Part shown: positions 5,469 through 26,280 of the stretch, piece after piece
Numbering within the stretch: position 1 is the stretch's first letter
Layout: each line of letters starts with the position of its first letter
Assembly: GCA_050951565.1 (NCBI GenBank)
Contig: JBMNJH010000008.1
Coordinates: 11,111-75,110, forward strand
Length of the DNA: 64,000 bases
Source: Peptococcia bacterium
GTDB lineage: Bacteria > Bacillota > Peptococcia > DRI-13 > DTU073
Direction: 5' to 3'
Notes under the pieces: model-generated
Seen by the model: only the letters and a program-made list of their open reading frames with translations
The model's database searches: none
What the model was told of the DNA's origin: nothing
Translations under genes and position numbers: made by a program

Positions 5469-5865
5469 CTTTTTTCTTCAGTTTACTGATGCGCTTATTA
5501 ATGGTATTATATTTTTCTCCCCATTCCTGCTCCTTATAATACATGTCCATCAAAAGATCATAAAGGTTTTCCACTACATATTTTCTTTTTTGCGGGGTTA
5601 AAAACTGAAAGCGAACTATACAGAGGATAAAGTGTTCAAAAGGCATTCCGTTATAGTTAAAAAACCCGATTAAAATTAGTGGTCCGGCCGTAAGGATAAT
5701 CAGCCAACTGGCCAGTTCATCTCCGATGTAAGGACGAATAAATATATATAAAGGGATGTTAATGGAAAGAGCTAAGATAATGGAAAAGGTTTGACGAACA
5801 TTGAGCCCAAAAAAGAGCTTTTCTTTATAATGACGTATTTCTTTCGGCACCCTAACTTCAATCAT
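5437..5865 (-). CDS. PrgI family (VirB3-like) small T4SS membrane protein
   Basis: 142 aa. N-terminal VPKEIRHYKEKLFFGLNVRQ followed by two hydrophobic helices. SD GAAGGAGG upstream. Lies directly upstream of VirB4-like. Confidence 0.8.
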   Translation of the reverse strand: MIEVRVPKEIRHYKEKLFFGLNVRQTFSIILALSINIPLYIFIRPYIGDELASWLIILTAGPLILIGFFNYNGMPFEHFILCIVRFQFLTPQKRKYVVENLYDLLMDMYYKEQEWGEKYNTINKRISKLKKKDGGDSIEVTR

Positions 5866-5888
5866 TTACACTCGCCTCCTTCATCCCA

Positions 5889-6734
5889 TTATAATCCCAT
5901 GATGGCCTTCGCCCATGATTCTGATTTCAAGAGAGCGAAAAGCAAAGCTACCGAAGACAGGACATAAGCTATAACCCCAGCAATGGGCGCGACGCCGTCA
6001 CCCGGATTAATCCATCGTGCGGCAATCATCAGATAGACATAACACAAGACAACAATTACCACTCCCTGCAGGCAAACGGCTATGTAAGACTGGACAAACC
6101 TGAAAGCGATGGAGTTGAACTCATCGGAAACCATGGTGGAAAGAGGAATCGGAGCCATGATGGTATATACGCACAATTCGATTAACCTTCCGAAAACGAC
6201 AAAATAAACCGCGATCCTTATAAGGAGCATTACGGCCCAAATAACGAAATACTGGATAAAATAGAATATTTTGGCAATTAAGCCTATATCTCTAAACTCA
6301 TTGAGAATTTGATCAATCATGCTGTTCCAATTCGCTATCCTGCTAAAACCTTGTAAATCAGGATTGTTCGGAGCCAGGGTATCACAAATCCCGACCACAA
6401 CAGTTGCGATTAGCTCTAACAGTGCAAAGCTATTTACAATTACTACTTTGGCCAAAAACAACCTGATAAGCATACTGACGATGTTTTCCCAATGCATAAG
6501 TTCAAACATGATGGTCTTATTTAAAAAACTGATCATAAAGAAGACGCACATTAAGGTATAGCCGATCGGAAGAATAATATTAAAGACCGTCAGCACATAA
6601 TTGTAAATTGTCCCGTCACTTGTCCCCGCCACATTTGGTACTTCTCTCACCAAATTAATAATTGATTGAATGTCTCCTTCGAGGCCAAAGATTTGGTTAA
6701 GTATATTCCCAAACAATGCAACAAGCTCATCCAC
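5889..6734 (-). CDS. Polytopic T4SS membrane protein (VirB6/TrbL-like)
   Basis: 281 aa with 6 or more hydrophobic helices. GTG start preceded by AGGTGGTGA. Position between the Maff2-like and PrgI-like genes. Confidence 0.65.
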   Translation of the reverse strand: MDELVALFGNILNQIFGLEGDIQSIINLVREVPNVAGTSDGTIYNYVLTVFNIILPIGYTLMCVFFMISFLNKTIMFELMHWENIVSMLIRLFLAKVVIVNSFALLELIATVVVGICDTLAPNNPDLQGFSRIANWNSMIDQILNEFRDIGLIAKIFYFIQYFVIWAVMLLIRIAVYFVVFGRLIELCVYTIMAPIPLSTMVSDEFNSIAFRFVQSYIAVCLQGVVIVVLCYVYLMIAARWINPGDGVAPIAGVIAYVLSSVALLFALLKSESWAKAIMGL

Positions 6735-6841
6735 TTTCCATCACCACCTAATGTATAGGGTGACTACAAAACGAGACGAACCAAACCGAAACGGAATTAT
6801 TTAACACTTCCAACTTTTAGAAAAATATTGACTATTCTGGC

Positions 6842-6904
6842 TTAAAAATAGTGGGTGCCAAAATTTGCGGCCCCACTATCGAATATGGACACAAGCTCAT
6901 CCAT
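6842..6904 (-). pseudogene. Remnant copy of the 5' end of a VirB6-like gene (20 codons, MDELVSIFDSGAANFGTHYF)
   Basis: 13-nt identity TGGATGAGCTTGT with the start of the intact gene at 6734 (MDELVALFG...). The peptide is similar over its first 9 residues and then runs into the terminator hairpin. Confidence 0.4.
6843..6879 (-). terminator. Rho-independent terminator/attenuator after the Maff2-like gene
   Basis: Minus strand reads TAGTGGGGCCGCAAATTTTGGCACCCACTA followed by TTTTT. About 10-bp stem with one bulge. Confidence 0.6.
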
Positions 6905-6985
6905 AAACTTATTCACTAATACGGATCGGGAGCCATTATAATTATGAACACCCTTAAATATTCCTGCCGTGACTAACTGCTATTG

Positions 6986-7369
6986 TTATTGCACGTTCAA
7001 GCCTGTTCCGACGTTGAACAACTGTTGAGCCATCAAACACAGCCCTGCCAACATAAATCCAGCCGCTAATACTTTCAGCCCGGATACTTTAGCATCTGCA
7101 TCATCGTTCATGAAGCCAAGGATTAATTGCAAGGCACCGAAAAACGCGATAACAAAACCGAGACGATAAACCCAGCTGACAATAAAGTTCAATACCATAT
7201 TCAAGTTGTTGAATCCAACGTCATAGGCATTAACCGAACCGCCTTGTTGTTGCTGTCCTAAAACCGGGCTTGCGAAGGTTACCATTAAGACAGCTACCAG
7301 AAAAACCACGGTCAGTATTTTTAACACTTTCCCATGACTGAACCTGAGACAACTTAAGGCATTTACCAT
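6986..7369 (-). CDS. Maff2-like small membrane protein with N-terminal extension (possible pilin-like T4SS component)
   Basis: 127 aa. Signal-like N-terminus, then two helices flanking GFMNDDADAKVSGLKVLAAG, which resembles the Maff2 family core (GYGNDNPGAKSQG.KQL.AG, recalled from memory). SD AGAGGGGGA. Confidence 0.55.
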   Translation of the reverse strand: MVNALSCLRFSHGKVLKILTVVFLVAVLMVTFASPVLGQQQQGGSVNAYDVGFNNLNMVLNFIVSWVYRLGFVIAFFGALQLILGFMNDDADAKVSGLKVLAAGFMLAGLCLMAQQLFNVGTGLNVQ

Positions 7370-7395
7370 TTTAATCCCCCTCTTCGTTGATATTT

Positions 7396-9243
7396 TTATC
7401 TTCCCAAATATCTAAAGTCATGCTCTCTTTCCCTCAACCTGCTGGTAGGCAACCTTTCCCTGAGTAGATCATCCTCCTCCTGCCTCCGGCCTTTTGGTAA
7501 TTCGACTTTCGTTTCATATGGCCTGAGTCTCCTGATGGAACGGTAGTCAAAAAAGTAATTCCCGTTATAATCATTTAAGTACTTGGCGTTTTTATGCTTT
7601 TGCACATCATACTTTTTGGAATAGAAGGGATAAGTACCTCTGATAATGAGGATACAGTCTTCATCGGGCAGACGCTCTAATTCATCAGGTAACATCAGTT
7701 CTCTCTTCATCACGTCGTAAGCCTTGGAACTGGTCCGGGTCCATTTCTGTTCTTTATTGTATGTATAGACATATGTATCGATTGTTTCTACGCCCAGGGC
7801 TTTGCTGACGTACTCCAGGGTGAATAAATCCATACTGCCCAGGAAAAGCAGGCTGTCACAGTTACCGACAATGGTTTCAAAGTCATCTTTATAGGTCGCC
7901 TTAATCTGAGATAGATTCTGCACGATGATACTGGCGCTGATTTCCCTGCCCCGCATGGTTCCCAGCACGCGGGCAATACTGGGAAGAAAACCGATATTCG
8001 CGAATTCATCAAGTATGCAGCGGACATGAAGATTCAGCTTACCGGTGGGCGAAGTATCCGCCTTGTTATACAGTGTTTCAAATAGTTGCGTATACATTAA
8101 AGCCGCGATAAAATTATAGGTTACAAACGCATCGGAAATGATTACGAACAAAGCTGTTTTTTCATCCCCGAGTTTATCCAGTTCCAAAGTGTCCTTGGCC
8201 ATAATATTGGCCACATCCTGAATATTGAAGATTGCCAGCCGCACCCCGGTAGAGATAAGAATGGAGCGCGCCGTTTTCCCTGAAGATTGTTTGAACACCG
8301 AATACTGTTTGACCGCCAGATGGTTCGGTTTTTCGAGCGCTAATTGGGCGAAAATTTGGTCAAGTTCGCTCTCAAAAGTCGGATCATCTTCCTTGACATC
8401 GCCTTTTCTGAGTAAATCAAGAACTGCGTTAACGGACTGGTCCTTTTTCGGGAGTTCATACCAGACATAGAAGAAAAGAGCTTGCAGAAGAGCTTTTTCG
8501 GCTCTTTCCCAGAAGGGGTCATAGGATTTGGCCTCTTCCGGCGTTGTATTGTCAATCAAACACTGAATCGCTGTTACGACGTCACCTTCATCACGCATAT
8601 AGTCGAAGGGGTTATATCCATCACTATATTCCCTTTGCACTAAATTAAGTACTTTAATTTTATACCCTTCTTTTTGCAGGAAGGCTCCCGTATCTCTCAA
8701 CAATTCGCCTTTCGGATCCGTAACCACATATGAGGAATGGGCCTGTAAGATATTGGGTTTCACATAAAGCCTGGTTTTTCCTGTGCCGGGGCCGCCAATC
8801 ACTACTGCGTTCAGGTTTTTCCCTGTTTGCATGGTATTGAGACTTAGACCTTCGGTTTGGGTGAAAATAATATTTTGATCCGGGTTTTTATCCAGCAATG
8901 GTTTAATGTCGTTTTTGCCGCCCCACTGAGCCGTACCGTGTTCTTTACCGGTCATGTATTTCTTTCTGGTAGTAAGAAAGTATACTACAAAGAGAAAATA
9001 GAAAACGGAAAAGAAGCCTAGTATTTTAAACGCTAATATGTCCGGTTGAAAAATAGGATTCGTGTTCATGTGTTGCTCAAAATCCGTCATAAACTGATTA
9101 AAATTAAAAATGGTAACTTGTTCATAAGTGCTTAATACGGTTCCGAAATGGAGAAGCGTATATGCTATGAAAAGATATATGACAATAAAAGCTATTTTAT
9201 AGTTCTGAATTCTTTTTTCCCTTTTGGCTTGTTCTGTCGTCAT
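7396..9243 (-). CDS. Type IV coupling protein (VirD4/TraG family)
   Basis: 615 aa. Two N-terminal TM helices, Walker A GGPGTGKT, VVTDPKGEL, Walker B ILDEFANIG, VQNLSQI. SD AAGAGGTG. Confidence 0.9.
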   Translation of the reverse strand: MTTEQAKREKRIQNYKIAFIVIYLFIAYTLLHFGTVLSTYEQVTIFNFNQFMTDFEQHMNTNPIFQPDILAFKILGFFSVFYFLFVVYFLTTRKKYMTGKEHGTAQWGGKNDIKPLLDKNPDQNIIFTQTEGLSLNTMQTGKNLNAVVIGGPGTGKTRLYVKPNILQAHSSYVVTDPKGELLRDTGAFLQKEGYKIKVLNLVQREYSDGYNPFDYMRDEGDVVTAIQCLIDNTTPEEAKSYDPFWERAEKALLQALFFYVWYELPKKDQSVNAVLDLLRKGDVKEDDPTFESELDQIFAQLALEKPNHLAVKQYSVFKQSSGKTARSILISTGVRLAIFNIQDVANIMAKDTLELDKLGDEKTALFVIISDAFVTYNFIAALMYTQLFETLYNKADTSPTGKLNLHVRCILDEFANIGFLPSIARVLGTMRGREISASIIVQNLSQIKATYKDDFETIVGNCDSLLFLGSMDLFTLEYVSKALGVETIDTYVYTYNKEQKWTRTSSKAYDVMKRELMLPDELERLPDEDCILIIRGTYPFYSKKYDVQKHKNAKYLNDYNGNYFFDYRSIRRLRPYETKVELPKGRRQEEDDLLRERLPTSRLREREHDFRYLGR

Positions 9244-9342
9244 ATCGGCTGCACCTCTTTTGCTGCTGACTTAAAATCCTTTCTTCATCCCTATCTTCAT
9301 CCACCGTATCAGCCGAGATACAATACCCTTCAGGTTACTTTC

Positions 9343-9371
9343 ATTATAGCAGTTTTCACCAGTGCCTACAA
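9343..9371 (-). promoter_or_regulatory. Sigma-A type promoter for the T4SS operon (TTGTAG-17-TATAAT)
   Basis: Minus strand reads cTTGTAGgcactggtgaaaactgcTATAATgaaag, about 95 nt upstream of the coupling-protein ATG. Confidence 0.5.
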
Positions 9372-9418
9372 GATAAAATAAAGAAAATTGCAATATATTA
9401 AAAATAAATATTATCAAT

Positions 9419-9463
9419 TAAAAAGAGGTGCCAAAAAGCCGGAACCCTTGACTTGTGCACCTC
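9419..9463 (-). terminator. Rho-independent terminator of the ECF/A2M/Memo operon
   Basis: Minus strand: GAGGTGC-(25 nt)-GCACCTC followed by TTTTTAATT, about 17 nt after the Memo-like stop. Confidence 0.55.
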
Positions 9464-9479
9464 CTATTTTGTTTATTTT

Positions 9480-10550
9480 TTATTTATGTCCTAGATAGGT
9501 TTCAAAAAAAAGTAAATTGAAGTAGCTGGTGGTTGCCATTTTATCGTCCCGGAACAGCACACCGGAGTTAGTGTTTCCTAGGATATGGAAGTTTTTTATC
9601 CCCGCTCGCTCCGCCCAGCGCAGCGCGCCGGCTAAAGAGGCCGGAGAATCCAGATAGGCATTGTCTAAACGAAACAGGGTCGCATAATCGAAATCCCGCA
9701 TCACCTGAAGGGTAAAGCGGTCCTTTTCCTGGGCTTCTTCCCGGGTCAGGTAATGGGAAAAATCGACGGAAGCGAGCAAAACCGCTCTCTTATCCTGCAG
9801 GGCGGCCTGCAACCGGTCAAGCAATTGGTCCACCTCCGTCAAAGACACCCCATAGTGAAGAATCACAGGCACTACCGGCGTTGCCGGGAGAAAATGCTTG
9901 ATCAAGGGCATCAGGTTCCCTACGGAATGTTCCTTGCCCAGGATTTTTTCATCCCTGACCACTTCCCGCTGCTCCAGCAAACTACACACAAGGCTTTTTT
10001 CCGTTTTAACCAGACCCAGGGGCGTCTGCCAGTCCGCCAGTCCGGTGATGATCCTTCCGCCCTGGTTATAATGGTTCGGCCCGATGAGCACCAGCACTTC
10101 CGGCTCCTGGGCAGCTACGTGCTCCAGTAGCTCCATGATCATGGTCCCGGCCACCAAATGATGGGGAAGTACCCCGGCAACGATTCTTTTCCCCTGAAGC
10201 CGTCCGGATCGCCCTCCGGTTTCAGTCAATTGACCTGTCTTTGCGGATTGAACCGCCTGAATCGATGGAGACGCTTGAGCCGCTTCCAATGATTGAGCCG
10301 ATGGAGATTCTTGCGCCGGGCTGCCGGCCGCAGGGTATTGCGCCAGGATTTGGGCCAAATCTTCCGCCGAGACAAAACTGGCCTGCGCCTTTACATTGTT
10401 CCACTCCCGTTCCTCCCCCTTAATGGGGAGGCTGCCGGCGCTGGGACAGTTGGCTTTTTCCGCTTCCAGCCGACCGCTGGCCGCCTGACAGGCGGCCAGC
10501 GCCACAGCCCCGGCCATTATAATTACTAAGGCAATCCGGCTTCGTCTCAT
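9480..10550 (-). CDS. Memo-like (MEMO1/AmmeMemoRadiSam system protein B family) protein with lipoprotein signal peptide
   Basis: 356 aa. N-terminal MRRSRIALVIIMAGAVALAAC (lipobox LAAC), an A/Q/S-rich linker, then VLPHH, GPNH and VDFSHY motifs in Memo order. The ATG overlaps the upstream stop (TAATG). Confidence 0.7.
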   Translation of the reverse strand: MRRSRIALVIIMAGAVALAACQAASGRLEAEKANCPSAGSLPIKGEEREWNNVKAQASFVSAEDLAQILAQYPAAGSPAQESPSAQSLEAAQASPSIQAVQSAKTGQLTETGGRSGRLQGKRIVAGVLPHHLVAGTMIMELLEHVAAQEPEVLVLIGPNHYNQGGRIITGLADWQTPLGLVKTEKSLVCSLLEQREVVRDEKILGKEHSVGNLMPLIKHFLPATPVVPVILHYGVSLTEVDQLLDRLQAALQDKRAVLLASVDFSHYLTREEAQEKDRFTLQVMRDFDYATLFRLDNAYLDSPASLAGALRWAERAGIKNFHILGNTNSGVLFRDDKMATTSYFNLLFFETYLGHK

Positions 10551-13500
10551 TATTTAATCACAATCCTGTCTTCCTCGCCCAGGATCCGGACGTCCCGGTT
10601 CCTGCCGTTACTCAGCAGGGTACCCTGGGCCGTAAATTCACCCGGCGAGACAACCCGTGCGTAATAGACCACTTTTTGCGTCCCGGCTCCCCCTTTTCCC
10701 GTGCCTTTCCATACGCCGAAAGCAATCTTTGGCCCTTTCACCTCAAAGGGGAAAGTCCAGTCCCTGGACACTTTTTCCCAGCTCATCCTTGCGTAGGGCC
10801 GCGGCACGTACTTCAAACCGGAGGGCAAAACATCCACCAGTTCGTAGAGGCCGGCCGGCGCCAAATCCTTGATTTCGTATTCCAGCACCACCTCCACCAG
10901 ATCCCCCGGCCGCAGCGTGGAGGTAGCCACTCCGTTGACCTTGTAGGTCCGCTTGACCGCCAGGTCGTCCCGCGCCGGCTTTTCTTCTTTTTCGTACGGC
11001 TGACTATACACGGTGGTTAGCCCTACTTTGCCGCGAATATCCTTAAACTGCAGCTGCGCCAATTCTTCCGGCAAGAGGTACAGGGCAAGTATTTCATCCC
11101 CTTGCAAGGTCTTTTGTTCCGTTTTACCCTTCCTGACATAGGTGAAGGAAACCGGTTCGCTGTCCAGATAACGCAGCTTGTATTTCAGGATCTGTAATTG
11201 TTCCAGGTTGTTGAGCAGTTCCTGGCCGGGGTTTTCCAGCAGGTACTGGTATAATTTGTTGTTCTCGGGAGCACCCAGTTTGGCCGCCAACATGGCCAAC
11301 TGGCCGGTCGCAGCGATGATTTCATCCTGGCTTTGGCCAATCTTTACACGCATGGTCGGGCCAAGGTCTTCCCCATAGACCTCCAGTAACTCCGCGTAAA
11401 TCGTCCTGGCCACCGCGCCGTTCCCGATATCCAGCATGGCCAGGGCCAGATAAACCTGCTGCTCCGGCGCCAGATCCTCCTGCGCGAGATATTTGTTGAT
11501 CTCCGGCAGGACCGGTTCGCCCAGAGCCCCTAAGCCCCACAAGGCCGGGGTGGGATCTTTTCCTTCCTTCTCCCCTTTCTCCAGTAAGGCGTAGAAGTAG
11601 CCAATCAGCGCGCTCCGGTCAAAGCCCGGACTGCCTAAGGAGGCCACCAAAGCCGTCAAAACCGGGTCGCTTTCCCCATAGGGCAAGAGGGCAATTCCCC
11701 CGTCTTCCTTCTGATAGGGCAGGAACTCATCGGTTTCGGCCGGTTCGTCGACGAACTCCTTAAAGGAAGCATCCTCCTGGGCATAATATTCCGCCAGCAG
11801 CTTCCGGGCTTCCGCAGCGGCTAATTTCTGCTCCAGCCGCTCCCCCCGATCCCAAACCAGTTGCCACAAACCACACAGGTACTGCCCCTGCTCGTAATTG
11901 CTGAATACCACGTAAGTCGGTTCTTTCGGGCTGCCTTGCAGCTTCGTGTTTTCCTCCAGCAACCGGTGGGAACTGACAAAACGCTCCAGGAAAGAGGCAG
12001 CCACGGTAAAGCTTTGACTTAGTTTATCCTGGGAATCCCCTGCCTTTCCTTCCGCAACCAGCGTGTACGTTCCTTCCTGGAGGGCGGGAAGTTGCCAGTT
12101 AAAGCTTTCCGCCACCTTCGCTTTGCCTTGTTTCTTGATCACTTTCCCCGCCGGGTCGTGCAACTCCAATTGGTAAACCACCGTATCCTGTGGGCTCACC
12201 TTTTCCCCGTAGGAACGCACCAGGACCACCGGGGTGTCCCCCACCAAATACTGCTCGTTAAACACCAGGTCGACGAAGAAAGGCAAGCGAACGGGAATCT
12301 GGTAAGTACCGCTGGCGGCCTGCAAATCCTGGGTCATAGCGTGGTAAGTCACCCGCCAGTTGGTCAAATTATCAGGCAAAACGAACTCCACCTGCGCCTC
12401 GCCGCGTCCATCGGTTTCCACGGTGGTAAACAGGACGGTATCGGTAAAATCGTCCCGTAGCTCATCGCCTCCTCCCCCCTGTTCCGCTCCGCCCGGATAG
12501 GCGGGATGGTCGTGGGAAGCCCGGGTATCCAGGTACATCAGCACGTAATCATGATAAAGGTCGACTAAGAAATTGACGTCCTGTTCATTCATGGCATAGA
12601 TCGCTTCATCGACCAGATTCAGATTGACCCTGGCTTTCACCGGCCGCTTCTCTTGATCGGTCACCTTCACCCGAAGGGAGACCTTATCCTTCGGACGGTA
12701 TTCTTTTTGGTCCGTGGTCAGCTCTACTTGCAGGGCTTTCTCTTCCCTGTCGAAGGGAATAATCTCGGACATGGACCCAATGTATACGTTCCCGTCAAAA
12801 TAGACCGCCCCGACGTTGGTGTTGGGAATGTCCGTCTTGGAGAAGACAAAACCATACTCCGGCCGGTCGGACACCTGAAAGGCTTCAATCTCTTTCTGAC
12901 CGCGATAGAACAGGAAAGCCTGTTCTCTTTCGGCCAGTTTATGCTCACTGTCCATAAAGGCCACCGACACCTGTTCCCCTTCGTTATAATACTCTTTGTC
13001 TTTTTGCAGGCGGTAATATTTATAATATTCCCCGCGGCCATAGGCGCTGTCTTCATGAATATAGACCCGCTTGCGGGCGATGCGGCCCTCTGCGTCGGGT
13101 GCGGTTAAATCAACGTAATAGGAATGCTGTGGATCGAGGGCTAGCTTGTAAAGGGCCTTCCCTTCCTGATTGGTAGTCATGGTAAAATCGGTCAGCTTTT
13201 TCGTGTCGTAAGTATAGGAATATTGTTTTTCCACCTGCTTGGTAATAAAGTTGTAGCTTTGCCCGGTCTCGATTTTCGTCCATATTTCCTGATAAATGGT
13301 CCCCTTAATGGGCTGCCCCGCCACCGGTTGACCCAGGTAGTTTTCCTGCTTTATATCCATGCCGGCATTTATTTTGTCCAAATCAATCCGGAATAACCCG
13401 GCGTCCAGGGTGACCTCCTGTCCGTTCCGCTGGACCGCGCCCTCCAAAAAGAACTTGCTGGCAAAAACATAGATTACACTGGAAGCGCTGATCTCCCCGG

Positions 13501-15700
13501 CTTCAGGCGTCGCCACCGTAACTTCCAAAGGAACATAACGGTAGGGTTCGGAATAAAAGTTATCCACATGGCCCGAATAGGGGATCTGCGCCTGTCCTTT
13601 TTCGTCTGTGACAACCTGCCCCGTTTCATCCATGATGTTGTAATTCAATTTCACCTGGGAGACAGGGGTCCCTTCGAAAAAGGCCGCCTCAGTTGGAAAA
13701 TGGACCTTTTCCCCGGCAAAGATAGCTGTTTTTTCCCGTTCTACTTTAATCTTGTAGGCCGGTTTCTGGTAAGTGGCCACCTTAAAGCCCCGGGAAAGGA
13801 AGAGGGTATCCCCTTTCCGGACTTCCAGGTAATAATAATCAGGAGCCAGGGTCGGCAGTTCAATTTCGCCGCTGAAGACGCCCTGCTTAACGGAAACCGT
13901 TTTGCTAAGCAGGGAAGTATCGTGCTGCTGCCAATAAAGGTCATTGCCCAGTCCCCGCAGGATAAGTTCTACTTCCTTCAGTTCTTCGGCTCCCCGGCGC
14001 GGGCTGAGCACGCCCCAGAAACGCACCGTATCCCCCGGCTTGAACAGCTCCCGGTCCAGGTAGAAATACTTCCAATAATCCCGCGGGTCATAGGGTAATT
14101 TTTCGGCAGCGGCGATGTTGGGGTTATCCTCTGCCGTAAACAGCGGCACAACGGTTTCCCTGGAACCGCTTTTAATAAGGGCATATTCCCTTTCCTCCGT
14201 CCGCAGGTTTTGCTCCAGGACAATGACCCCCTCTTTGTTGCCTTCAACCTTCCGGCCACTGCCCACGATTTGCAGTTGGGCATCCTGAACCGGCTTTTTG
14301 GTCTGCAGGTCATTTATCCAGAGCAGACTCTTTTCTTCTCCTTGCACCAGGTACACCGCCAAATCGGTTACCTGGAACCAAACCTGACGCACACAATCCT
14401 GCATTTCGATTTGGGCGGCATAATAGCCTGCCGGCAGGGCTTCCGGCGCCACCAGATAATGCTGGTAATCATTCGTACTGACCAGGTTTTGTTCAAATTC
14501 GGCGATTTTGGACAGTTTGCTGAAATCCTGCTGCTTTTGCTCCCATACGAAACTGGCCCATTCCGGCAATTGGTCGTTTTCGCGCAAGGCCTTGCAAAAG
14601 GCCCGGTAATCGCCATAGCGGTATACAGAAACCGCAGCTTTCGGCACTTCCTCTTCAACAAAGAAATAGACAGGAAACGCCGGAGGCTCAGAGGTCTTAA
14701 ATTCCGTTGTTTCCCGGCTTACTTGGAAAGTAAAGGCCTCCTCATCCTCTTCCGATTCGGTTTCAAAGCTGAAGGTGTAATCTGCGGGCAAGGAAGCGGC
14801 TCTGTCGGTCAGGGGCAAGCCTTTTTTCACCGTTACCACATATAAACATTCCGCTTCCAATTTTTCCGGCACAAAAACCAGGGTTTTGCCGTGTTTCTCA
14901 AAACGGCCCTTCACCTGCGGCACAATCTTTACGTACTCCTGTGCCTTTTCTAAAGAGAAATTGTCATGAGAAAAGAGAATCTCAATGCCTGTATTTAAGG
15001 GAACATAGGTGGTTTGGTCACCGGGCAGGGTTCGCACCACCCGGAAATCCCCTTTGGTTTGGAAAGCCCAGCTGTATTGGGCCCTTTCTTTTCCTTCCGG
15101 GTCAAAGGCCAGCCGGTAAACCGTATTGGCAGCCAATTTCATCTTGGGAATAATACGGTATTCCTTGCCCCCGGCTTTTTGATCCAGGGTGTACTCAAAA
15201 GCCGGTTCGACCTTGAGCTTCTTTTGCAACTCCTTTTCGGAGATGGGATCTTGACTGAGTAAGACAAAGCCGGCTTCCGGGTCGACCCCCAGAGAGTCTT
15301 CCTTCAGGGCTTTAATAGTAATTTCGCCGGCCAGGGCCGGTTGGATCCCCGGACCAAACAAGCCCGCCTGCCACAGCAGGCCGCCACAAAGCAACAAAAC
15401 CAGAAATCCAGCCACCAGTTTAAGCCCCCGGCCATTCCTGAGCCAGTTGGGCCAGGAAAAGGCGCCTTTTTGCCTGGCCCCGGTACCGTCCGGGCCCGCC
15501 TGAGCCGGATCCATCTTTTGTTCCGCCGGCTTTTGCTGTTCTTCCCCCGCCTTTTTCTCTATCGCCTGTTGTAAAGTACTGCGCAATTCATCCTGAAAAC
15601 CTTCCCTTAGCGGTGCCGGCTCTAATTCCTTAACCAACTTGCCCAACTCTTTTTCAATTGGCGTCATATCCCTATCCTGCTCAAATCGCTTTTTACTCAT
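10550..15700 (-). CDS. Membrane-anchored alpha-2-macroglobulin family protein in anti-sigma position
   Basis: 1716 aa. About 95 cytoplasmic residues, one TM helix (LKLVAGFLVLLLCGGLLWQAGLF), then a long beta-rich ectodomain. A2M-domain motif LPDNLTNWRVTYHAMT. No CxEQ thioester motif. The start overlaps the sigma-factor stop (ATGAGTAA). Confidence 0.75.
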   Translation of the reverse strand: MSKKRFEQDRDMTPIEKELGKLVKELEPAPLREGFQDELRSTLQQAIEKKAGEEQQKPAEQKMDPAQAGPDGTGARQKGAFSWPNWLRNGRGLKLVAGFLVLLLCGGLLWQAGLFGPGIQPALAGEITIKALKEDSLGVDPEAGFVLLSQDPISEKELQKKLKVEPAFEYTLDQKAGGKEYRIIPKMKLAANTVYRLAFDPEGKERAQYSWAFQTKGDFRVVRTLPGDQTTYVPLNTGIEILFSHDNFSLEKAQEYVKIVPQVKGRFEKHGKTLVFVPEKLEAECLYVVTVKKGLPLTDRAASLPADYTFSFETESEEDEEAFTFQVSRETTEFKTSEPPAFPVYFFVEEEVPKAAVSVYRYGDYRAFCKALRENDQLPEWASFVWEQKQQDFSKLSKIAEFEQNLVSTNDYQHYLVAPEALPAGYYAAQIEMQDCVRQVWFQVTDLAVYLVQGEEKSLLWINDLQTKKPVQDAQLQIVGSGRKVEGNKEGVIVLEQNLRTEEREYALIKSGSRETVVPLFTAEDNPNIAAAEKLPYDPRDYWKYFYLDRELFKPGDTVRFWGVLSPRRGAEELKEVELILRGLGNDLYWQQHDTSLLSKTVSVKQGVFSGEIELPTLAPDYYYLEVRKGDTLFLSRGFKVATYQKPAYKIKVEREKTAIFAGEKVHFPTEAAFFEGTPVSQVKLNYNIMDETGQVVTDEKGQAQIPYSGHVDNFYSEPYRYVPLEVTVATPEAGEISASSVIYVFASKFFLEGAVQRNGQEVTLDAGLFRIDLDKINAGMDIKQENYLGQPVAGQPIKGTIYQEIWTKIETGQSYNFITKQVEKQYSYTYDTKKLTDFTMTTNQEGKALYKLALDPQHSYYVDLTAPDAEGRIARKRVYIHEDSAYGRGEYYKYYRLQKDKEYYNEGEQVSVAFMDSEHKLAEREQAFLFYRGQKEIEAFQVSDRPEYGFVFSKTDIPNTNVGAVYFDGNVYIGSMSEIIPFDREEKALQVELTTDQKEYRPKDKVSLRVKVTDQEKRPVKARVNLNLVDEAIYAMNEQDVNFLVDLYHDYVLMYLDTRASHDHPAYPGGAEQGGGGDELRDDFTDTVLFTTVETDGRGEAQVEFVLPDNLTNWRVTYHAMTQDLQAASGTYQIPVRLPFFVDLVFNEQYLVGDTPVVLVRSYGEKVSPQDTVVYQLELHDPAGKVIKKQGKAKVAESFNWQLPALQEGTYTLVAEGKAGDSQDKLSQSFTVAASFLERFVSSHRLLEENTKLQGSPKEPTYVVFSNYEQGQYLCGLWQLVWDRGERLEQKLAAAEARKLLAEYYAQEDASFKEFVDEPAETDEFLPYQKEDGGIALLPYGESDPVLTALVASLGSPGFDRSALIGYFYALLEKGEKEGKDPTPALWGLGALGEPVLPEINKYLAQEDLAPEQQVYLALAMLDIGNGAVARTIYAELLEVYGEDLGPTMRVKIGQSQDEIIAATGQLAMLAAKLGAPENNKLYQYLLENPGQELLNNLEQLQILKYKLRYLDSEPVSFTYVRKGKTEQKTLQGDEILALYLLPEELAQLQFKDIRGKVGLTTVYSQPYEKEEKPARDDLAVKRTYKVNGVATSTLRPGDLVEVVLEYEIKDLAPAGLYELVDVLPSGLKYVPRPYARMSWEKVSRDWTFPFEVKGPKIAFGVWKGTGKGGAGTQKVVYYARVVSPGEFTAQGTLLSNGRNRDVRILGEEDRIVIK

Positions 15701-16247
15701 GGTCCACCATCCTTTTCCGCAAATTCCTCAACCCACGGTGCAAGAGCTGTTTGACGGAACCTTCACTTTTGTCCATGATTTCGGAAATCTCTTGATAAGA
15801 CAATTCGTACAGGTAGCGCAAAATCAGCGCTTGTCCCTGTAAGGCGGGCAATGCCTGTAACTCTTTCCTTAAACGCTCTTTTTCGACCCGCAACAACACC
15901 ACCGTCTCCGGCAAGGGGTTTTCGTCGCGCAGGCTGTCCGTCTCCAACCAATCAGCCGTTAATCCTTTCTTCCGGTAAAGATCATTTACCGCGTTGGAGG
16001 CAATTTTAAACAGCCAAACCCCCACCGGAATATTCCGGTACTCATACCGGTCAATGTGCTCCAGGGCCGAAAGAAAGGTTTGGGAAGTTAGCTCTTCAGC
16101 ATCCGCCTGGTTAAAAGTACGGTAAAATACGTAGTTGTATACCTTCAAAAAATAAGTATCGTAGAGTTCTAAAAATGCTGCTTTATCCCGTTTTATTCTT
16201 TCCACCAATTCCCTGTCATCCACTGCCGTGGTCCCAAATGAAATCAT
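15693..16247 (-). CDS. ECF-type sigma-70 family RNA polymerase sigma factor
   Basis: Region 2 (FLELYDTYFLKVYNYVFYRT) and region 4 (LILRYLYELSYQEISEIMDKSEGSVKQLLHRGLRNLRK). Start moved to Met-26 of the track ORF because it is preceded by AAGGAGGGAGAAG. Confidence 0.85.
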   Translation of the reverse strand: MISFGTTAVDDRELVERIKRDKAAFLELYDTYFLKVYNYVFYRTFNQADAEELTSQTFLSALEHIDRYEYRNIPVGVWLFKIASNAVNDLYRKKGLTADWLETDSLRDENPLPETVVLLRVEKERLRKELQALPALQGQALILRYLYELSYQEISEIMDKSEGSVKQLLHRGLRNLRKRMVDHE

Positions 16248-16280
16248 CTTCTCCCTCCTTAATGCACTGCTCATTAATAA

Positions 16281-16306
16281 TAACGCGGATGTTGAGCAAA
16301 AGTTAC
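16281..16306 (-). promoter_or_regulatory. Candidate ECF-type autoregulatory promoter (GTAAC-N16-CGTTA)
   Basis: Minus strand reads ggcGTAACttttgctcaacatccgCGTTAtt about 30 nt upstream of the revised sigma start. It matches the AAC-N16-CGT architecture of Bacillus ECF promoters. Confidence 0.4.
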
Positions 16307-16354
16307 GCCTTTTCCCGCGCAATTTTTAACCTGGCCCAAAATGCGCTAAAAAAC

Positions 16355-16399
16355 CTAAAAAAAGAAGCTGTTGCCCCTATTCTATCACACCAGCTTCTT
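16355..16399 (-). terminator. Rho-independent terminator downstream of asd
   Basis: Minus strand: AGAAGCTGG-(loop)-CAGCTTCT followed by TTTTTTT. Confidence 0.6.
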
Positions 16400-16507
16400 T
16401 TGCGTATTATTCTAATCAATCTAAACTATTGCGTTCGTTTTGTTCCTTTTGCTCCTTTTTCTTTCCTTATTCTTTTGCTTATATTATCGCTTTCCGTCCG
16501 GCTGTTT

Positions 16508-17527: not shown

Positions 17528-17792
17528 TACCTTCAGCTCCTTGTTACATAAAACTCGCTAGTTTTGCTTACTGCAATTTTAATTATTATATTTACTCCTG
17601 ACCCCTTTGTCAATGGTCTTTTCGGGACAATTTTCAGACAACTTCTACATTCTTTCTTCTTGCATAAATTGTTATCTGGATTTATAATATAATTAGGGAA
17701 TATTCTGTATAATTTTCTTGTCTGCTAAGTGCTAACCTTGTTTGCTTGCACCTCCGCTTAATCGGGAAACTGACAGTAAGGGGGGGGAAAAA

Positions 17793-19298
17793 ATGAATAA
17801 AAGGTGGATATGGGTCATTTTGTTCGCGGTGGTTTTATTCCTCTTGGTCCCGATGACAGTATGGGGAGCAACCTTGTATGTAGGACCCGGCCAAACCTAC
17901 AACGGCACCACCCAGGACGTAATTAACCAAGCAATTCAAGACGCTAACGCCGGAGATACGGTGTATCTTCGGGCAGCCACCTATAACATCACCGGTCCAA
18001 TAATCTTAAAAAGCGGGATCACCCTGCGCGGGGACGGCGGTAAAACGGTAATCCATGCGGCAGGAGATAATGTATGTAATAACCCCAGTAGCGAAACCGG
18101 CAGTGCGTATGTAATCGGAAACGATGTCTCCAATGTGACCATCTGCAACCTGCGCTTTACCAGTACGGCCGATGAAAAAAATGACGGTGGGCACGGAGAC
18201 GGACGAAATTGTATCCAATTCCGCAGAGCCCAAAATTGTGAAGTGTACAACGTCATCTTCTCCAGATGGTTGTTCAATGACGGCGTCCGCGTAAGCAAAT
18301 CCAACGGGATTAGCGTCCATGATTGCGAAATCAATGCCGGCCATGACGGGATTTGTTTTTACGCCTCACAAAACTGTAAAGCTTATAACAACCAAATCTC
18401 CGTGCAAATAAACAACGGTATTCGGGCCAATGGTTCCAGTAACGTCGAAATCCATAATAACAATTTCACCAGCAGATCTGACCTCGGTGGCTGGTGCTGT
18501 GTCCAGATTCAGGGAAATGCCAGAAACGTGAACATCCATCATAATATCTTTTATGATACGGCCGGAAAAATCGGAGTCGCACCTTATGACTTCTCCGGCT
18601 CCAATATCCAGGTTCATGACAATGTCTTCTGGAATTGCGTGACACCGATCCAAGTCGGGTCTGGCTCCAATAACATTGTCAATCCGTCCGATCGAAATTT
18701 AGGCAACTGGGTCCAGCAAGGGTACGGCAGAAGCATTAATAATAGTAATATCCCTGCTCCTTCGGGCAACAATACTCCTGTCCAAAATGGAAAACAGCAA
18801 CAACAACAGCAACAACAACCAACAACCCAGCCCCGTTCTAATCCATCTTCCCAGTCCCGTTCCAATCCTTCTTCTCAACCCAGTTCCAATAATAGTAATC
18901 TTCCCAATTATTATTATCCTCGTTCGAATTATAGCCCTAATTACAATTATAGTCCTAATTACAATTATAGTCCCAATTCCGGCTCTCCTTCCAACTCAAA
19001 TTATGACTATAACTATTATTACTATCCTCGTTCCAGTTCAAACAATAATAATAACTATTATTACTATCCTCGTTCCAGTTCAAATAATAATAATAACTAT
19101 TATTACAGTCCTCGTTCCAGTTCAAATAATAATAACAGCCCTCGTTCCGGTAATAGTTCCCGGCCTAGCAGTTCACGCCCGAATAATAATAACCGTTCCG
19201 GCCAGACTTATATTATTGCTCCCGGTATTGGTCCTAATTCCGACGTTATCATCCCCAATCTCAGCTATGAAGACCTTTTCGGACGCTTTGCTCGTTAA
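17793..19298 (+). CDS. Secreted right-handed beta-helix (PbH1/pectate-lyase-like fold) protein with N/Y/S/P-rich C-terminal tail
   Basis: Start moved to MNKRWIWVILFAVVLFLLVPMTVWG (signal peptide) after AAGGGGGGGG. Repeated N/D-G-I/V-x-V motifs (NDGVRVS, HDGICFY, NNGIRANG) typical of parallel beta-helix repeats. Confidence 0.7.
   Translation: MNKRWIWVILFAVVLFLLVPMTVWGATLYVGPGQTYNGTTQDVINQAIQDANAGDTVYLRAATYNITGPIILKSGITLRGDGGKTVIHAAGDNVCNNPSSETGSAYVIGNDVSNVTICNLRFTSTADEKNDGGHGDGRNCIQFRRAQNCEVYNVIFSRWLFNDGVRVSKSNGISVHDCEINAGHDGICFYASQNCKAYNNQISVQINNGIRANGSSNVEIHNNNFTSRSDLGGWCCVQIQGNARNVNIHHNIFYDTAGKIGVAPYDFSGSNIQVHDNVFWNCVTPIQVGSGSNNIVNPSDRNLGNWVQQGYGRSINNSNIPAPSGNNTPVQNGKQQQQQQQQPTTQPRSNPSSQSRSNPSSQPSSNNSNLPNYYYPRSNYSPNYNYSPNYNYSPNSGSPSNSNYDYNYYYYPRSSSNNNNNYYYYPRSSSNNNNNYYYSPRSSSNNNNSPRSGNSSRPSSSRPNNNNRSGQTYIIAPGIGPNSDVIIPNLSYEDLFGRFAR
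18790..19200 (+). repeat. Low-complexity coding repeats (Q8, SNPSSQ x2, NY(N/S)P x3, NYYYYPRSSSNNNNN x about 2.5)
   Basis: Read directly from the protein tail and from the 45-nt nucleotide repeats around 19010-19130. Confidence 0.85.
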
Positions 19299-19481: not shown

Positions 19482-21512
19482 TTGAAAAATACTCGCTTTA
19501 TGATCACCCTCTTTTTACTGTTCTTCCTGGGCATTCTTTTGCCGGCACCGGCTGTGGCCGCGTCAACGGCAGCGCAAAGTGTGGTAGCCCCCGTTAGCTC
19601 AAACACAGTCACCGTACCTGCGGAGAGCAGGTTCCCCGAGGTCTTTCCGCAAGCGATTTTCCCGCTGGCCAAAACCAGCCTGGAGTTACATGAAGAAAGA
19701 ATCACCCTGGATTGGTCGGAACTCAGCACAACCGTCCAAGGTGCTTATAAAATCGTCAACCCCGAGGAAAAAAAGGTCAAGGTTAAGCTCGGGCTGCCCA
19801 ACATTACCTCAGCTTTAGAAATATACTGCAATGAAGAAAAGAAGGAAAGCACCTTGGAACCCCGTTTAAACGCCCAAGTCTGGGAACTGCAACTGGAAGC
19901 AAAAGCGGAAATCAACCTGCATCTTATCTACACCATCGAAAACAGCGTGGACGAAGCAGGAATCATGAAAACAGGATACCGCTTTAATCCTGAAAAATCT
20001 GCGTTCTGGGGAAATACAAGTTCTCCTTCCTTTTCCCTTACTCTAAACTTTAAAGACACCCATCCCGGGCAAATCCTCAAGCTTGTTCCCTACAGCTTTC
20101 AATTTAAAAGGAATTCCCTGGTTTGGGAGCAAGCCGCCAACGCGGAGAAAAAAGACATCCTGATTTTGGCCAGCCTCCAGGAAGAAATGAAGTCCTGGCA
20201 AAAGCTCCTTTCTCCCGGCGAAAAAGCCCAACTCCAGGAACTAACGGCCCTGGGCGGCTATAAAACGGCCGCGGAAATCCTGGAGAAAAAGGCCCGCGAA
20301 GTAAAGAACAAACATGACAAGCGCCTGTTAAAGCTGGGACAAGCCTATTATCTAACCAAAACAAATTACCAGCAAAAAGCCCTCTCCATCTTCGAGGAAC
20401 TCGTCGACAGCGAGGAGGCGTATCCCCGGGCGTACTGGGAACTGGGGAAAAGCCTGGCTCAGCATCCCGGCAAACTGGAAGATTTATTGGAAAAAGTACG
20501 CGAACACGAAGTGCATGCACTCTTGCAACCATGGCTCCTCGCCCAACTGCCCGATGGAGAAAGGGAGTCCTCCGCCCCGCAAATTATCATCAAATATACC
20601 GATACCAATATGAACAAGAAGGGAATTACGATCAAAGGCCACCTGACGGACCCTGATGGTGACATTGACCAGGTTACGCTCCACTACCACTGGGAAGGCG
20701 AAAGAACCGAAGAAATGGCACTACAGGCCCAGCAATTTTACTATGAATACGAACCGGTCTTTTTTGTCCCCGCCCCCAGTCCTTTTAAACGCCTCTATTT
20801 TGAAATCAGCGCCGTGGATTTTAGCGGCAATAAGGTTACCACCGGAACAAAAGAGGCCTTCTACCTGACCGAGGATTTTCAAAGCGAAACCTTCGTCCTG
20901 GATGGGGCCAACCTGATCCTGGCGGATTACACGCCGCGGGAACAAAACAAGCTGTACGCCTGGTTCAAAAGCTATTTGAACATTGCCCAGGAAGTTGGCT
21001 TTGTGCCTATTGAAGCCAAAAGCCCCCTTTTCATCTTCATGGGCAAAAACTATGACTTCATTAAAGATTATCAGGGGGTCATTTTCATGCAGTACACTCC
21101 GGCTCCCTTTTCCCCCAAACAGGCCCGGATTGCCGTCCACCGCCATTTTTTAAGTTACTGGTATGGCGCAGGCTGGAACTACCTCCCTGAAAAGGAGATC
21201 GCCAAATTTGGCGATGCCTTGTTATTGGGTAAAAACTGGTACTATTATGTTTTTAAATACCTCCAGCAAAAAGATTACCATCGATTTGCCCAATTATTAT
21301 GTAAAATCGGAGAAGGCCAAAACTGGCGCCAGGCGTTAATGCACAGTTATGGACTAAGCCCCCTTCAATTGTACCTGTTTACAGGATGGCACACTGTGGG
21401 GTCCTATGTCCTCGCTTTGATTATCATCATCGGTTTTGCCTGGCTGGGGAAACACGGTTATATTACTAAATTCGTGCGGAAAGTGAAAAACACCAATTTT
21501 TCTCAGAAATAA
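19482..21512 (+). CDS. Secreted/membrane-anchored hypothetical protein (signal peptide, TPR-like middle, C-terminal TM helix)
   Basis: 676 aa. TTG start after GTGAGGAGG. N-terminal LLFFLGILLPAPAVAAS and C-terminal VGSYVLALIIIIGFAWL. No catalytic motif recognised. Confidence 0.6.
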   Translation: MKNTRFMITLFLLFFLGILLPAPAVAASTAAQSVVAPVSSNTVTVPAESRFPEVFPQAIFPLAKTSLELHEERITLDWSELSTTVQGAYKIVNPEEKKVKVKLGLPNITSALEIYCNEEKKESTLEPRLNAQVWELQLEAKAEINLHLIYTIENSVDEAGIMKTGYRFNPEKSAFWGNTSSPSFSLTLNFKDTHPGQILKLVPYSFQFKRNSLVWEQAANAEKKDILILASLQEEMKSWQKLLSPGEKAQLQELTALGGYKTAAEILEKKAREVKNKHDKRLLKLGQAYYLTKTNYQQKALSIFEELVDSEEAYPRAYWELGKSLAQHPGKLEDLLEKVREHEVHALLQPWLLAQLPDGERESSAPQIIIKYTDTNMNKKGITIKGHLTDPDGDIDQVTLHYHWEGERTEEMALQAQQFYYEYEPVFFVPAPSPFKRLYFEISAVDFSGNKVTTGTKEAFYLTEDFQSETFVLDGANLILADYTPREQNKLYAWFKSYLNIAQEVGFVPIEAKSPLFIFMGKNYDFIKDYQGVIFMQYTPAPFSPKQARIAVHRHFLSYWYGAGWNYLPEKEIAKFGDALLLGKNWYYYVFKYLQQKDYHRFAQLLCKIGEGQNWRQALMHSYGLSPLQLYLFTGWHTVGSYVLALIIIIGFAWLGKHGYITKFVRKVKNTNFSQK

Positions 21513-22862: not shown

Positions 22863-22920
22863 TTGCATAAACAAAGCGGGCTGGGATATAATATAAGATG
22901 CAAATGCTAATCTTTTGCAT
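22863..22920 (+). promoter_or_regulatory. znu promoter (TTGCAT-18-TATAAT) with downstream inverted repeat ATGCAAA-N9-TTTGCAT (candidate Zur operator)
   Basis: Read directly upstream of the AGGAGG-ATG of znuA. The repeat sits at the expected transcription start. Confidence 0.45.
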
Positions 22921-22935
22921 TTAGGAGGAACAAAC

Positions 22936-24012: not shown

Positions 24013-24013
24013 C

Positions 24014-24712: not shown

Positions 24713-24717
24713 CCAAA

Positions 24718-26094: not shown

Positions 26095-26280
26095 TCAATG
26101 CAGGAAAAAAAGTACAAAACTGGCATACAGCACAGCGAAAACCGCTAAGAAAGCCACCCCCCAGCCAGCCCTTTTATTCTTCCGGCGCAGAAGCCACCTG
26201 GCGTAAACCAAGGTATACAATCCCACGCAAAGGGCGACTAGCCACAATAAGAGATCGGAAAGCAGGACACTCATCATCAT
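26095..26280 (-). CDS. Small two-helix membrane protein, last gene of the ger operon
   Basis: 61 aa, two hydrophobic helices. The start overlaps the GerC-type stop (4-nt overlap). Confidence 0.5.
   Translation of the reverse strand: MMMSVLLSDLLLWLVALCVGLYTLVYARWLLRRKNKRAGWGVAFLAVFAVLYASFVLFFLH

Follow-up and report, generated by a model that had tools for sequence, protein, structure and literature searches.

A candidate protease-sensing anti-sigma factor built on an alpha-2-macroglobulin in a Peptococcia bacterium

In this study, we have analysed a 64-kb stretch of DNA from a Peptococcia bacterium (64,000 nucleotides of contig JBMNJH010000008.1, hereafter the window), in which an extracytoplasmic function (ECF) sigma factor, a membrane protein of 1716 residues and an exported Memo-family lipoprotein are encoded one after the other. 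Our investigations demonstrate that the large protein carries a complete bacterial alpha-2-macroglobulin (A2M) outside the cell, and we think it probable that this same protein is the anti-sigma factor of its neighbour. ECF anti-sigma factors are usually destroyed by proteases, and A2Ms are protease traps; we know of no ECF anti-sigma factor with a protease trap as its sensor domain and, to our knowledge, the way in which bacteria perceive extracellular protease attack is largely unknown. A preliminary description of this DNA had proposed that the module converts such attack into sigma factor activation. The reading that we favour is an autoregulated operon in which the A2M body is a protease-gated sensor with an RsiV-like release of the sigma factor, and we give this full model a probability of roughly 0.4.

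Results

The operon and its promoter

The three open reading frames (ORFs) all lie on the minus strand in 9480-16322 and encode, as called, 356, 1716 and 209 residues: the Memo-family lipoprotein (9480-10550), the A2M-bearing membrane protein (10550-15700) and the sigma factor (15693-16322). The transcription unit thus runs from a promoter through the sigma, A2M and Memo genes to a terminator-like hairpin. The sigma factor was called from a TTG at 16322; as this start would overlap the promoter, and as the orthologues have 183-186 residues, the start is most likely the ATG at 16247 behind an AAGGAGG ribosome-binding site, which gives a gene at 15693-16247 and a protein of 184 residues. At the first junction, ATGAGTAA (15700-15693) holds both the ATG of the A2M gene (15700-15698) and the TAA of the sigma gene (15695-15693), an overlap of 8 nt that recurs in about half of the homologues; at the second, TAATG (10552-10548) overlaps the A2M and Memo genes by 1 nt. 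The translational coupling of the three genes, and the placing of the large gene in the anti-sigma position, had both been put forward in the preliminary description and held when the sequence was checked. A predicted RNA hairpin with a U-run closes the operon 3' of the Memo stop (9418-9465, minus strand; -17.2 kcal/mol, z -2.6, then UUUUU), and another ends the upstream asd gene (16355-16400, minus strand; -14.3 kcal/mol, z -3.3, then U7), so that the operon is insulated from upstream transcription. None of the three proteins matched a PADLOC defence model.

The sigma factor scores 91.8 bits against the sigma70-ECF model TIGR02937 (cutoff 42.9), and Pfam recognises in it only the Sigma70_r2 and r4_2/r4 regions; with sigma2 and sigma4 domains alone in 184 residues, it belongs to the ECF (group 4) sigma factors. 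Its lineage is BldN-like. The best NCBIfam family model is TIGR02952 (the BldN family, which we take to be ECF121 of Casas-Pastor 2021) and the closest PDB entry is 6dxo_A, the BldN of the RsbN-BldN complex (9e-21). It nevertheless falls outside the BldN family itself, since the score of 132.9 bits is below the cutoff of 206.45 and the N-terminal pro-extension is absent.

Between the asd terminator and the sigma gene lies an ECF-type promoter, CGTAAC(TTTT)-N16-CGT(TA), at 16283-16307 on the minus strand, with the -35-like element at 16307-16302 and the -10-like CGT at 16285-16283; transcription would be expected to start near 16276. CGTAAC-N16-CGT matches once in the 64-kb window, for a chance expectation of 0.12. 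Its extended form, CGTAACTTTT-N12-CGTT(T/A)A, stands upstream of the sigma gene in the window and in all nine unique orthologous loci with upstream DNA, was found upstream of the A2M gene in 0/58 sigma-less loci, and has two other matches in all loci. Positive autoregulation is common to most ECF systems, and the conserved motif fits positive autoregulation of this operon, as had been suggested from the GTAAC-N16-CGT of the window.

The A2M ectodomain

In the 1716-residue protein, Pfam finds Big_5, MG2, A2M_BRD and A2M above the gathering score, and also lists bMG3. The family signature, LPDNLTNWRVTYHAMT (residues 1108-1123; 12332-12379, minus strand), falls inside the Pfam A2M domain PF00207 (residues 1088-1146), and its P1109, D1110, T1113, W1115 and R1116 are invariant in 19 homologues. 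A profile of these homologues found ECAM/YfhM (3e-15) and the Salmonella A2M (SaA2M, 4e-13) in the PDB, along with TEP1, human A2M, CD109 and C4. Predicted structures agree with the profile. The AlphaFold model of residues 120-1160 (pLDDT 86.6) matched ECAM at 4e-39 and SaA2M at 8e-38 over about 1040 columns in Foldseek, and that of residues 1150-1716 (pLDDT 92.7) matched the MG7-to-C-terminus part of ECAM (4ziu, 1e-22) and trypsin-activated ECAM (4ziq, TMq 0.65). The ectodomain of about 1600 residues is collinear with the A2Ms of E. coli and Salmonella through the MG array, the bait-position loop, the TED-like domain and the C-terminal MG domain, which is the domain order of the A2M/TEP superfamily. 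Based on these three lines of evidence, the ectodomain is a complete bacterial A2M. The preliminary description had assigned the protein to this family from its signature, and the domain search, the profile and the models all bear the assignment out.

The same description had also seen a helical TED-like region. This stands, as an all-helical domain at residues about 1269-1510 (11171-11896, minus strand) that lies in the part modelled at pLDDT 92.7 and matched to ECAM, but the thioester of such a domain is absent. At the corresponding position, which we took from the start of the TED-like domain and not from a residue-level structural alignment, the protein has the degenerate motif G-E-R-L-E-Q (residues 1286-1291, with R1288 and Q1291; 11828-11845, minus strand) in place of CxEQ, and an arginine replaces the thioester cysteine in 19 of 19 homologues. 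The bait-position loop, AYPGGAEQGGGGDELRDDF (residues 1067-1085; 12446-12502, minus strand), lies inside the A2M_BRD domain; it is the longest low-confidence loop of the MG array (pLDDT <50) and aligns with the region of ECAM that holds the disordered bait Arg923-Leu942.

Cytoplasmic segment and juxtamembrane site

A hydropathy scan places one transmembrane (TM) helix at residues ~95-117 (15350-15418, minus strand), and the basic RNGRGLK before its hydrophobic core places the N-terminus inside the cell. Together with a motif check, this agrees with the preliminary view of about 95 cytoplasmic residues, a single TM helix and no HxxxCxxC motif. Residues 1-60 (15521-15700, minus strand) form a conserved segment, our putative sigma-binding domain, with two predicted helices, P30 and a stripe of F35-L39-L43; E16, P30, F35 and L39 are invariant in an alignment of 10 orthologues, and the consensus of this Peptococcia-type extension reads ELxxLEKE..F..L..APLRxxFQxxLRxxL. 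The MSK(D/E)xF N-terminus is kept in homologues, in support of M1 as the start of the protein. We considered whether the long N-terminus could be an artefact of ORF calling; this was rejected for the window, where residues 1-11 are conserved in orthologues, and accepted for locus L059.

With neither a Pfam match nor an HxxxCxxC motif, the segment does not belong to the class I anti-sigma domains (ASDI/ZAS), helical bundles that zf-HC2 or RskA-type profiles recognise and that carry HxxxCxxC in their ZAS members. A profile of the N-terminal domain gave only chance matches in the PDB (a lactococcin immunity protein, E 0.3) and, in a set of 5.8 billion proteins, only fragments of the same A2M family (P0170, P0199). 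A phmmer search with residues 1-95 against 1.84 billion representatives likewise returned A2M-family fragments and no other architecture with this domain. After the gene of the nearest sigma factor that is not coupled to an A2M (P0165, 43% identity) comes one for a small protein with a single TM helix, whose motif LTPLNPSAEFADKLGVELR is superficially similar, but the hhalign E value of 0.45 led us to reject it as evidence. In one public assembly (NCBI record CZCB01), P0170 (the N-terminal piece, 83 residues, 100% identical to window residues 12-78) and P0189 (439 residues) are small pieces of this A2M gene. The split is probably an artefact of assembly or a frameshift, and because of it databases list the N-terminal domain as if it were a small protein on its own.

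Just outside the membrane, between the TM helix and the first beta-strand, the protein has P-A-L-A|G-E (residues 121-126), a feature that the preliminary description did not mention. Its A-L-A (residues 122-124, before G125; 15329-15337, minus strand) is an AxA of the signal-peptidase type and our proposed site-1 cleavage position. An [AV]xA precedes a conserved DxxG by exactly 11 residues in almost all proteins of the window clade and its neighbour clades, every sigma-coupled one included, and 43 of 72 unique family members satisfy the -3/-1 rule at this spacing. The site corresponds by homology to the position at which the short signal peptides of sigma-less relatives are cleaved; in the zinc-type clade (see below), for example, VNA|GD aligns with the signal-peptide sites TVSA|DS, ASA|DT and GFA|SG of sigma-less sisters. 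From this alignment, the anti-sigma forms look like secreted A2Ms whose signal peptide was lengthened on its cytoplasmic side.

Related loci

A homologue search returned 232 relatives, mostly from uncultured Bacillota, whose annotations go no further than 'Ig-like domain-containing protein' or 'alpha-2-macroglobulin'. We examined 84 related loci, out of more than 553 in the family, and counts are given on unique loci (69 of them complete for Memo adjacency). A cytoplasmic extension and a sigma gene go together: the TM core starts at or after residue 70 in 13/13 unique sigma-coupled loci against 3/52 sigma-less ones (Fisher p = 3e-11, uncorrected for phylogeny), and the three exceptions are one over-extended ORF and two unrelated tails. 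The window type of cytoplasmic segment is restricted to sigma-coupled members of the family.

The extensions are of three types, the Peptococcia type of the window, a zinc type from a distant clade (L002, L073) and a third type (L069), whose N-terminus bears no significant relation to that of the window by hhalign. In the zinc type, a zf-HC2 anti-sigma domain (MNCGE...HLSDCESC; 33.1 bits in L002 and 29.1 in L073, cutoff 22.2) is fused to the TM helix and the A2M. The sigma factors of the zinc and L069 types score best against TIGR02954 and SigV-like models, and that of L002 is 24% identical to the sigma factor of the window. A neighbour-joining tree of the ectodomains has the three sigma-coupled types in three separate places, the zinc type nested in a clade whose A2Ms lack Memo and are secreted, with signal peptides of the ordinary kind. 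Sigma coupling therefore recurs with other sigma/anti-sigma types, once without Memo, and the separate positions and different sigma factors indicate that an anti-sigma module was fused to an A2M independently at least three times. This repetition is the strongest argument that the extension of the window protein is an anti-sigma domain.

The Memo gene has a wider distribution. It stands directly downstream of the A2M gene, mostly with a 4-nt overlap, in 54/69 complete loci from Peptococcia, Syntrophomonadales, Tepidanaerobacter, Symbiobacteriaceae, Oscillospiraceae, Dehalococcoidia and others, which makes A2M and Memo an ancestral, widespread unit; no other neighbour of the A2M gene is conserved among the 84 loci. 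On this sequence comparison, sigma coupling is a lineage-specific addition to the A2M-Memo unit. The preliminary idea of a conserved trio must therefore be narrowed: sigma, A2M and Memo genes do occur together in 10 other distinct loci of the Peptococcia clade (an eleventh keeps sigma and A2M and ends before the Memo position), but the widespread core is A2M-Memo without a sigma factor.

Some relatives depart from these patterns. Cytoplasmic tails of 45-97 residues and of other sequence types are found in the sigma-less A2Ms of L003, L018, L020, L022 and L025 (Syntrophomonadales/Syntrophothermus), L060 and L072 (whose tail begins MANDQLKKYVSEQLARGASRSDLERIILESGW), and L048, from Dehalococcoidia, has a tail of 125 residues on a contig that breaks off before a gene upstream of the A2M is reached; there may be other kinds of cytoplasmic coupling as well. 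A long variable insert at the bait position is confined to the zinc anti-sigma clade, where P0099 and P0103 (of the L002/L073 type, with no Memo partner) carry about 50 variable residues at window residues about 1067-1085, and the sensors of the zinc and window clades may recognise different proteases or work differently. Seven partial relatives (P0088, P0107, P0108, P0116, P0118-P0120) align over roughly the first 55% of the A2M body only and end in HINT/polymorphic-toxin-type domains (PF07591, PF14890), for instance in Candidatus Magasanikiibacteriota; judged by these domain matches, the A2M-like scaffold is reused there as a toxin-delivery stalk.

The Memo-family partner

The 356-residue Memo protein has a signal peptide, a lipobox (LAAC) ending at Cys21, a low-complexity linker and a Memo domain at residues 119-336, and scores well above the cutoffs of both Pfam Memo PF01875 (81.5 bits, cutoff 27, 7.8e-23) and the NCBIfam model AmmeMemoRadiSam B TIGR04336 (111.1 bits, cutoff 26, 5.5e-32); a single-sequence search of the PDB gave no match. 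This settles in favour of the preliminary description its suggestion of an exported Memo-like lipoprotein. PHH130-131, GPNH160, EH208, DFSH266 and DSP301-303 are kept in 60 Memo partners, and the Memo/LigB-type motifs PHH, GPNH, EH and DFSH are invariant across them, so that the protein belongs to the Memo family. Judging by these residues, the exported protein is probably a metalloenzyme in working order. The operon has no AMMECR1 or radical-SAM partner, which, with the export of the protein, places it outside the three-gene AmmeMemoRadiSam system.

Genomic neighbourhood

Proteins identical or nearly identical to that of the window come from metagenome-assembled genomes of uncultured Peptococcaceae in many metagenomes. 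This lineage of anaerobes is frequent in anaerobic digesters. The window also contains a spore germinant receptor operon of the GerA/GerB/GerC type (26277-30555, minus strand), which identifies the host as a spore former. The order asd-sigma-A2M-Memo, together with an upstream M23 peptidase gene and a gene for a 676-residue protein, is syntenic with the related locus L001; the operon is therefore chromosomal and vertically inherited. The 676-residue protein (19482-21512, plus strand; L001 1922-3958) has no Pfam match, and the peptidase beside it is PcsB-like. A secreted right-handed beta-helix (pectate-lyase-like) protein is encoded at 17742-19298 (plus strand) and ends in 170 residues of an extreme N/S/Y/P low-complexity repeat, NNNNNYYYYPRSSS; opposite-strand and out-of-frame ORFs over the repeat are its artefacts. 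Farther along, at 22915-25560, lies a metal uptake operon of the ZnuABC type.

Directly downstream of the operon, conjugation genes occupy 3021-9243 on the minus strand, namely those for a coupling protein of the VirD4/TraG type (7396-9243), for a small protein of the membrane (6986-7369) and for a P-loop ATPase that resembles TraG/VirB4 (3021-5468), and the GC content falls there from 0.57 to 0.40-0.43 (profile of 4001-10000). L001 has a homologous coupling-protein gene about 3 kb downstream of Memo, which suggests that an integrated conjugative element may share the neighbourhood of the operon.

Discussion

Based on our results, we favour the explanation that an A2M-type anti-sigma factor arose when a secreted A2M without thioester acquired, ahead of its signal-anchor, a cytoplasmic domain that binds the sigma factor, as the sequence relationships suggest. 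That the large protein is an anti-sigma factor is supported indirectly by the position of its gene, the stop/start overlap with the sigma gene and the strict co-occurrence of the extension with a sigma factor. For sigma binding, the trigger and the proteolytic steps, we infer the following course of events. At rest, residues ~10-50 would hold the BldN-like sigma factor at the membrane, and the native A2M body would shield the AxA site (A122-L-A124|G) from signal peptidase. A foreign protease would then cut the exposed bait-position loop (residues 1067-1085), upon which the A2M would rearrange strongly and trap the protease non-covalently, as expected from the conformational rearrangement of ECAM (PMC4498604) and from the trapping of proteases by MagD, a type II A2M without thioester (PMC5764988). 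A cut of the bait at residue about 1075 does not in itself make a substrate for a site-2 protease, hence a juxtamembrane step is needed, and we propose the AxA site for it. Once exposed, this site could be cleaved either by the protease of the attacker or by signal peptidase, which is the site-1 protease of RsiV (the lysozyme sensor) and RsiP and does not cut them until the stimulus has come (PMC6066255, PMC8844934); the place of the site next to the membrane suggests, by analogy, an RsiV-like release. The remaining stub would be cut by a site-2 protease and degraded, and the freed sigma factor would transcribe its own operon from CGTAAC-N16-CGT and replenish the sigma factor, the A2M and the Memo partner.

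Several observations weigh against this model. Comparison of the N-terminal domain with Pfam, the PDB and hhalign profiles found no known anti-sigma domain. The A2M lacks the thioester, and its bait-position loop, of about 19 residues, is Gly-rich and conserved (GGAExGGEGG), unlike the hypervariable baits of broad-spectrum A2Ms. The AlphaFold model gives no sign that the AxA site is occluded, so that it might be cleaved constitutively. In the ectodomain tree, forms with and without a sigma factor are mixed, and sigma coupling is thus dispensable. Finally, the host is uncultured and the sensing model rests on sequence and predicted structure.

These observations leave room for other explanations. 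The lack of detectable homology between residues 1-95 and any anti-sigma domain, and the tails of 45-97 residues in a few sigma-less relatives (the L003 clade, L060, L072), would be expected if the extension were simply a cytoplasmic tail, for example for anchoring or sorting, with the sigma factor controlled elsewhere. We consider this quite improbable, as the gene directly downstream of an ECF sigma gene is in the standard anti-sigma position, the overlap of stop and start is a conserved one, 13/13 sigma-coupled loci have the extension, and in the L002/L073 clade a canonical zinc anti-sigma domain stands at the same place. If the pair is a genuine one, its trigger could still be something other than a protease (the envelope, sporulation, another ligand), with the A2M and Memo as cargo or surface structure. 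A sigma factor whose nearest family, BldN, has a developmental role in Streptomyces, a spore-forming host with a GerA operon nearby, and a short, conserved bait-position loop in an A2M without thioester would all suit such a trigger. It is rendered rather unlikely by two features of the ectodomain: the conformational machinery is retained and collinear with ECAM (BRD loop, TED-like domain, C-terminal MG domain), and two unrelated sigma lineages share this same ectodomain, which points to its being the input module.

The juxtamembrane site invites yet another explanation, namely that signal peptidase cuts AxA each time an A2M is translocated, upon which the A2M is set free and the stub is degraded, so that one sigma factor is freed per exported A2M. 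The operon would then form a homeostatic loop coupled to export or turnover, with an output that follows export capacity or A2M consumption and not protease attack. The homology of AxA with the constitutively cleaved signal peptides of sigma-less relatives speaks for it, as do the flexibility around the site in the model (pLDDT <50 for residues 120-124) and the fact that the only sigma-type promoter found is that of the operon itself. An anti-sigma factor that destroys itself constitutively would, however, lead to runaway positive feedback without regulation, RsiV and RsiP stay protected until their ligand arrives, and three independent fusions suggest a benefit from sensing; we regard this loop as unlikely.

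As a signalling device, the window protein would be most like RsiV-sigmaV. RsiV with sigmaV (Bacillus, Clostridioides) and RsiP with sigmaP also involve single-pass anti-sigma factors of Bacillota with an AxA by the membrane. Their ectodomains are receptors for a hostile factor, lysozyme for RsiV and a beta-lactam via PbpP for RsiP, and signal peptidase acts at site 1, then RasP at site 2, to start an autoregulated protective response (PMC4183432, PMC6066255, PMC8844934). There are clear differences: here an A2M fold of about 1600 residues takes the place of DUF4179 or the small domain of RsiV, the ligand, presumably a protease, would act by cutting and not by binding, the cytoplasmic domain belongs to no known class and the system is known from its sequence. 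RsbN of Streptomyces, with a class III anti-sigma domain, is a single-pass protein whose helical cytoplasmic N-terminus of ~117 residues matches no other anti-sigma family (PMC6101532). The operon of the window resembles RsbN-sigmaBldN in that its sigma factor is closest to BldN and its candidate anti-sigma factor is a single-pass protein with an orphan helical N-terminal domain, but the sigma factor is below the BldN cutoff and without the BldN pro-sequence, and the ectodomains are unrelated. RsgI-SigI of cellulolytic clostridia is another case of a Bacillota anti-sigma factor with a large extracellular sensor body, in which a modular domain (carbohydrate-binding module or glycoside-hydrolase-like) senses an extracellular macromolecule (PMC6582324); it differs in its SigI sigma family, its N-terminal anti-sigma domain and its carbohydrate sensor modules.

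The bacterial A2Ms described so far are of type I or type II, both in Gram-negative bacteria (PMC5764988, PMC3735191). The type I proteins (ECAM/YfhM, Salmonella A2M) have the same domain order throughout the ectodomain and were the best Foldseek and hidden Markov model matches. Their thioester motif is CLEQ, they are anchored as lipoproteins in the inner membrane of Gram-negative bacteria and they share an operon with PBP1c, whereas the window protein has RLEQ, a TM anchor with a cytoplasmic domain of 94 residues, a Memo partner and a monoderm host; it has neither the lipoprotein anchor nor a pbpC neighbour, and is flanked instead by the sigma and Memo genes. With the type II proteins (MagD, YfaS), which keep a bait region, it shares the absence of a thioester, and its bait-position loop may be the counterpart of that region. 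MagD associates with the membrane through a partner and traps proteases non-covalently (PMC5764988). Its gene belongs to a six-gene mag operon (MagA-F) in a Gram-negative periplasm, with no link to a sigma factor, whereas here three genes lie between promoter and terminator and MagA, B, C, E and F are absent. The A2M family reported here therefore resembles type II in its fold and in having no thioester, and departs from both types in operon and anchor.

Full-text searches for literature linking macroglobulins with anti-sigma factors, ECF sigma factors, Firmicutes or Memo found none. Neither macroglobulins nor Memo are mentioned in the main text of the ECF reclassification paper, and a 2026 review of bacterial A2Ms mentions neither Gram-positive forms nor a link to sigma factors. 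The literature search thus agrees with the preliminary statement that no A2M fused to an anti-sigma-like anchor was known to have been described in a monoderm spore former. We propose as new both an ECF anti-sigma factor whose sensor body is an A2M and a third class of A2M, which is paired with Memo and belongs to monoderms.

Conclusions

Our results suggest a broader view of bacterial A2Ms. A general hypothesis, possible though doubtful at this stage, is that bacteria have repeatedly, at least three times, turned the A2M, a protease trap of the innate-immunity type, into a transmembrane receptor in which bait cleavage by a foreign protease leads, by way of the spring-loaded rearrangement of the A2M and a signal-peptidase site, to intramembrane proteolysis of that polypeptide and so to the activation of an ECF sigma factor. 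If this is true, the protein of the window would be the first A2M-based sensor dedicated to extracellular proteases and acting on transcription, an input-output device with protease in and transcription out, and would also define a third class of bacterial A2M, found in monoderms and working together with an exported metalloenzyme of the Memo family. The A2Ms, so far part of the periplasmic defence of Gram-negative bacteria, would then include those of monoderm spore formers and of Chloroflexota, and the very widespread, unstudied partnership of A2M and exported Memo would be a clue to the function of Memo in bacteria. The independent fusions with different sigma factors would represent a natural experiment in how receptors are assembled from the signal peptide of a secreted protein.

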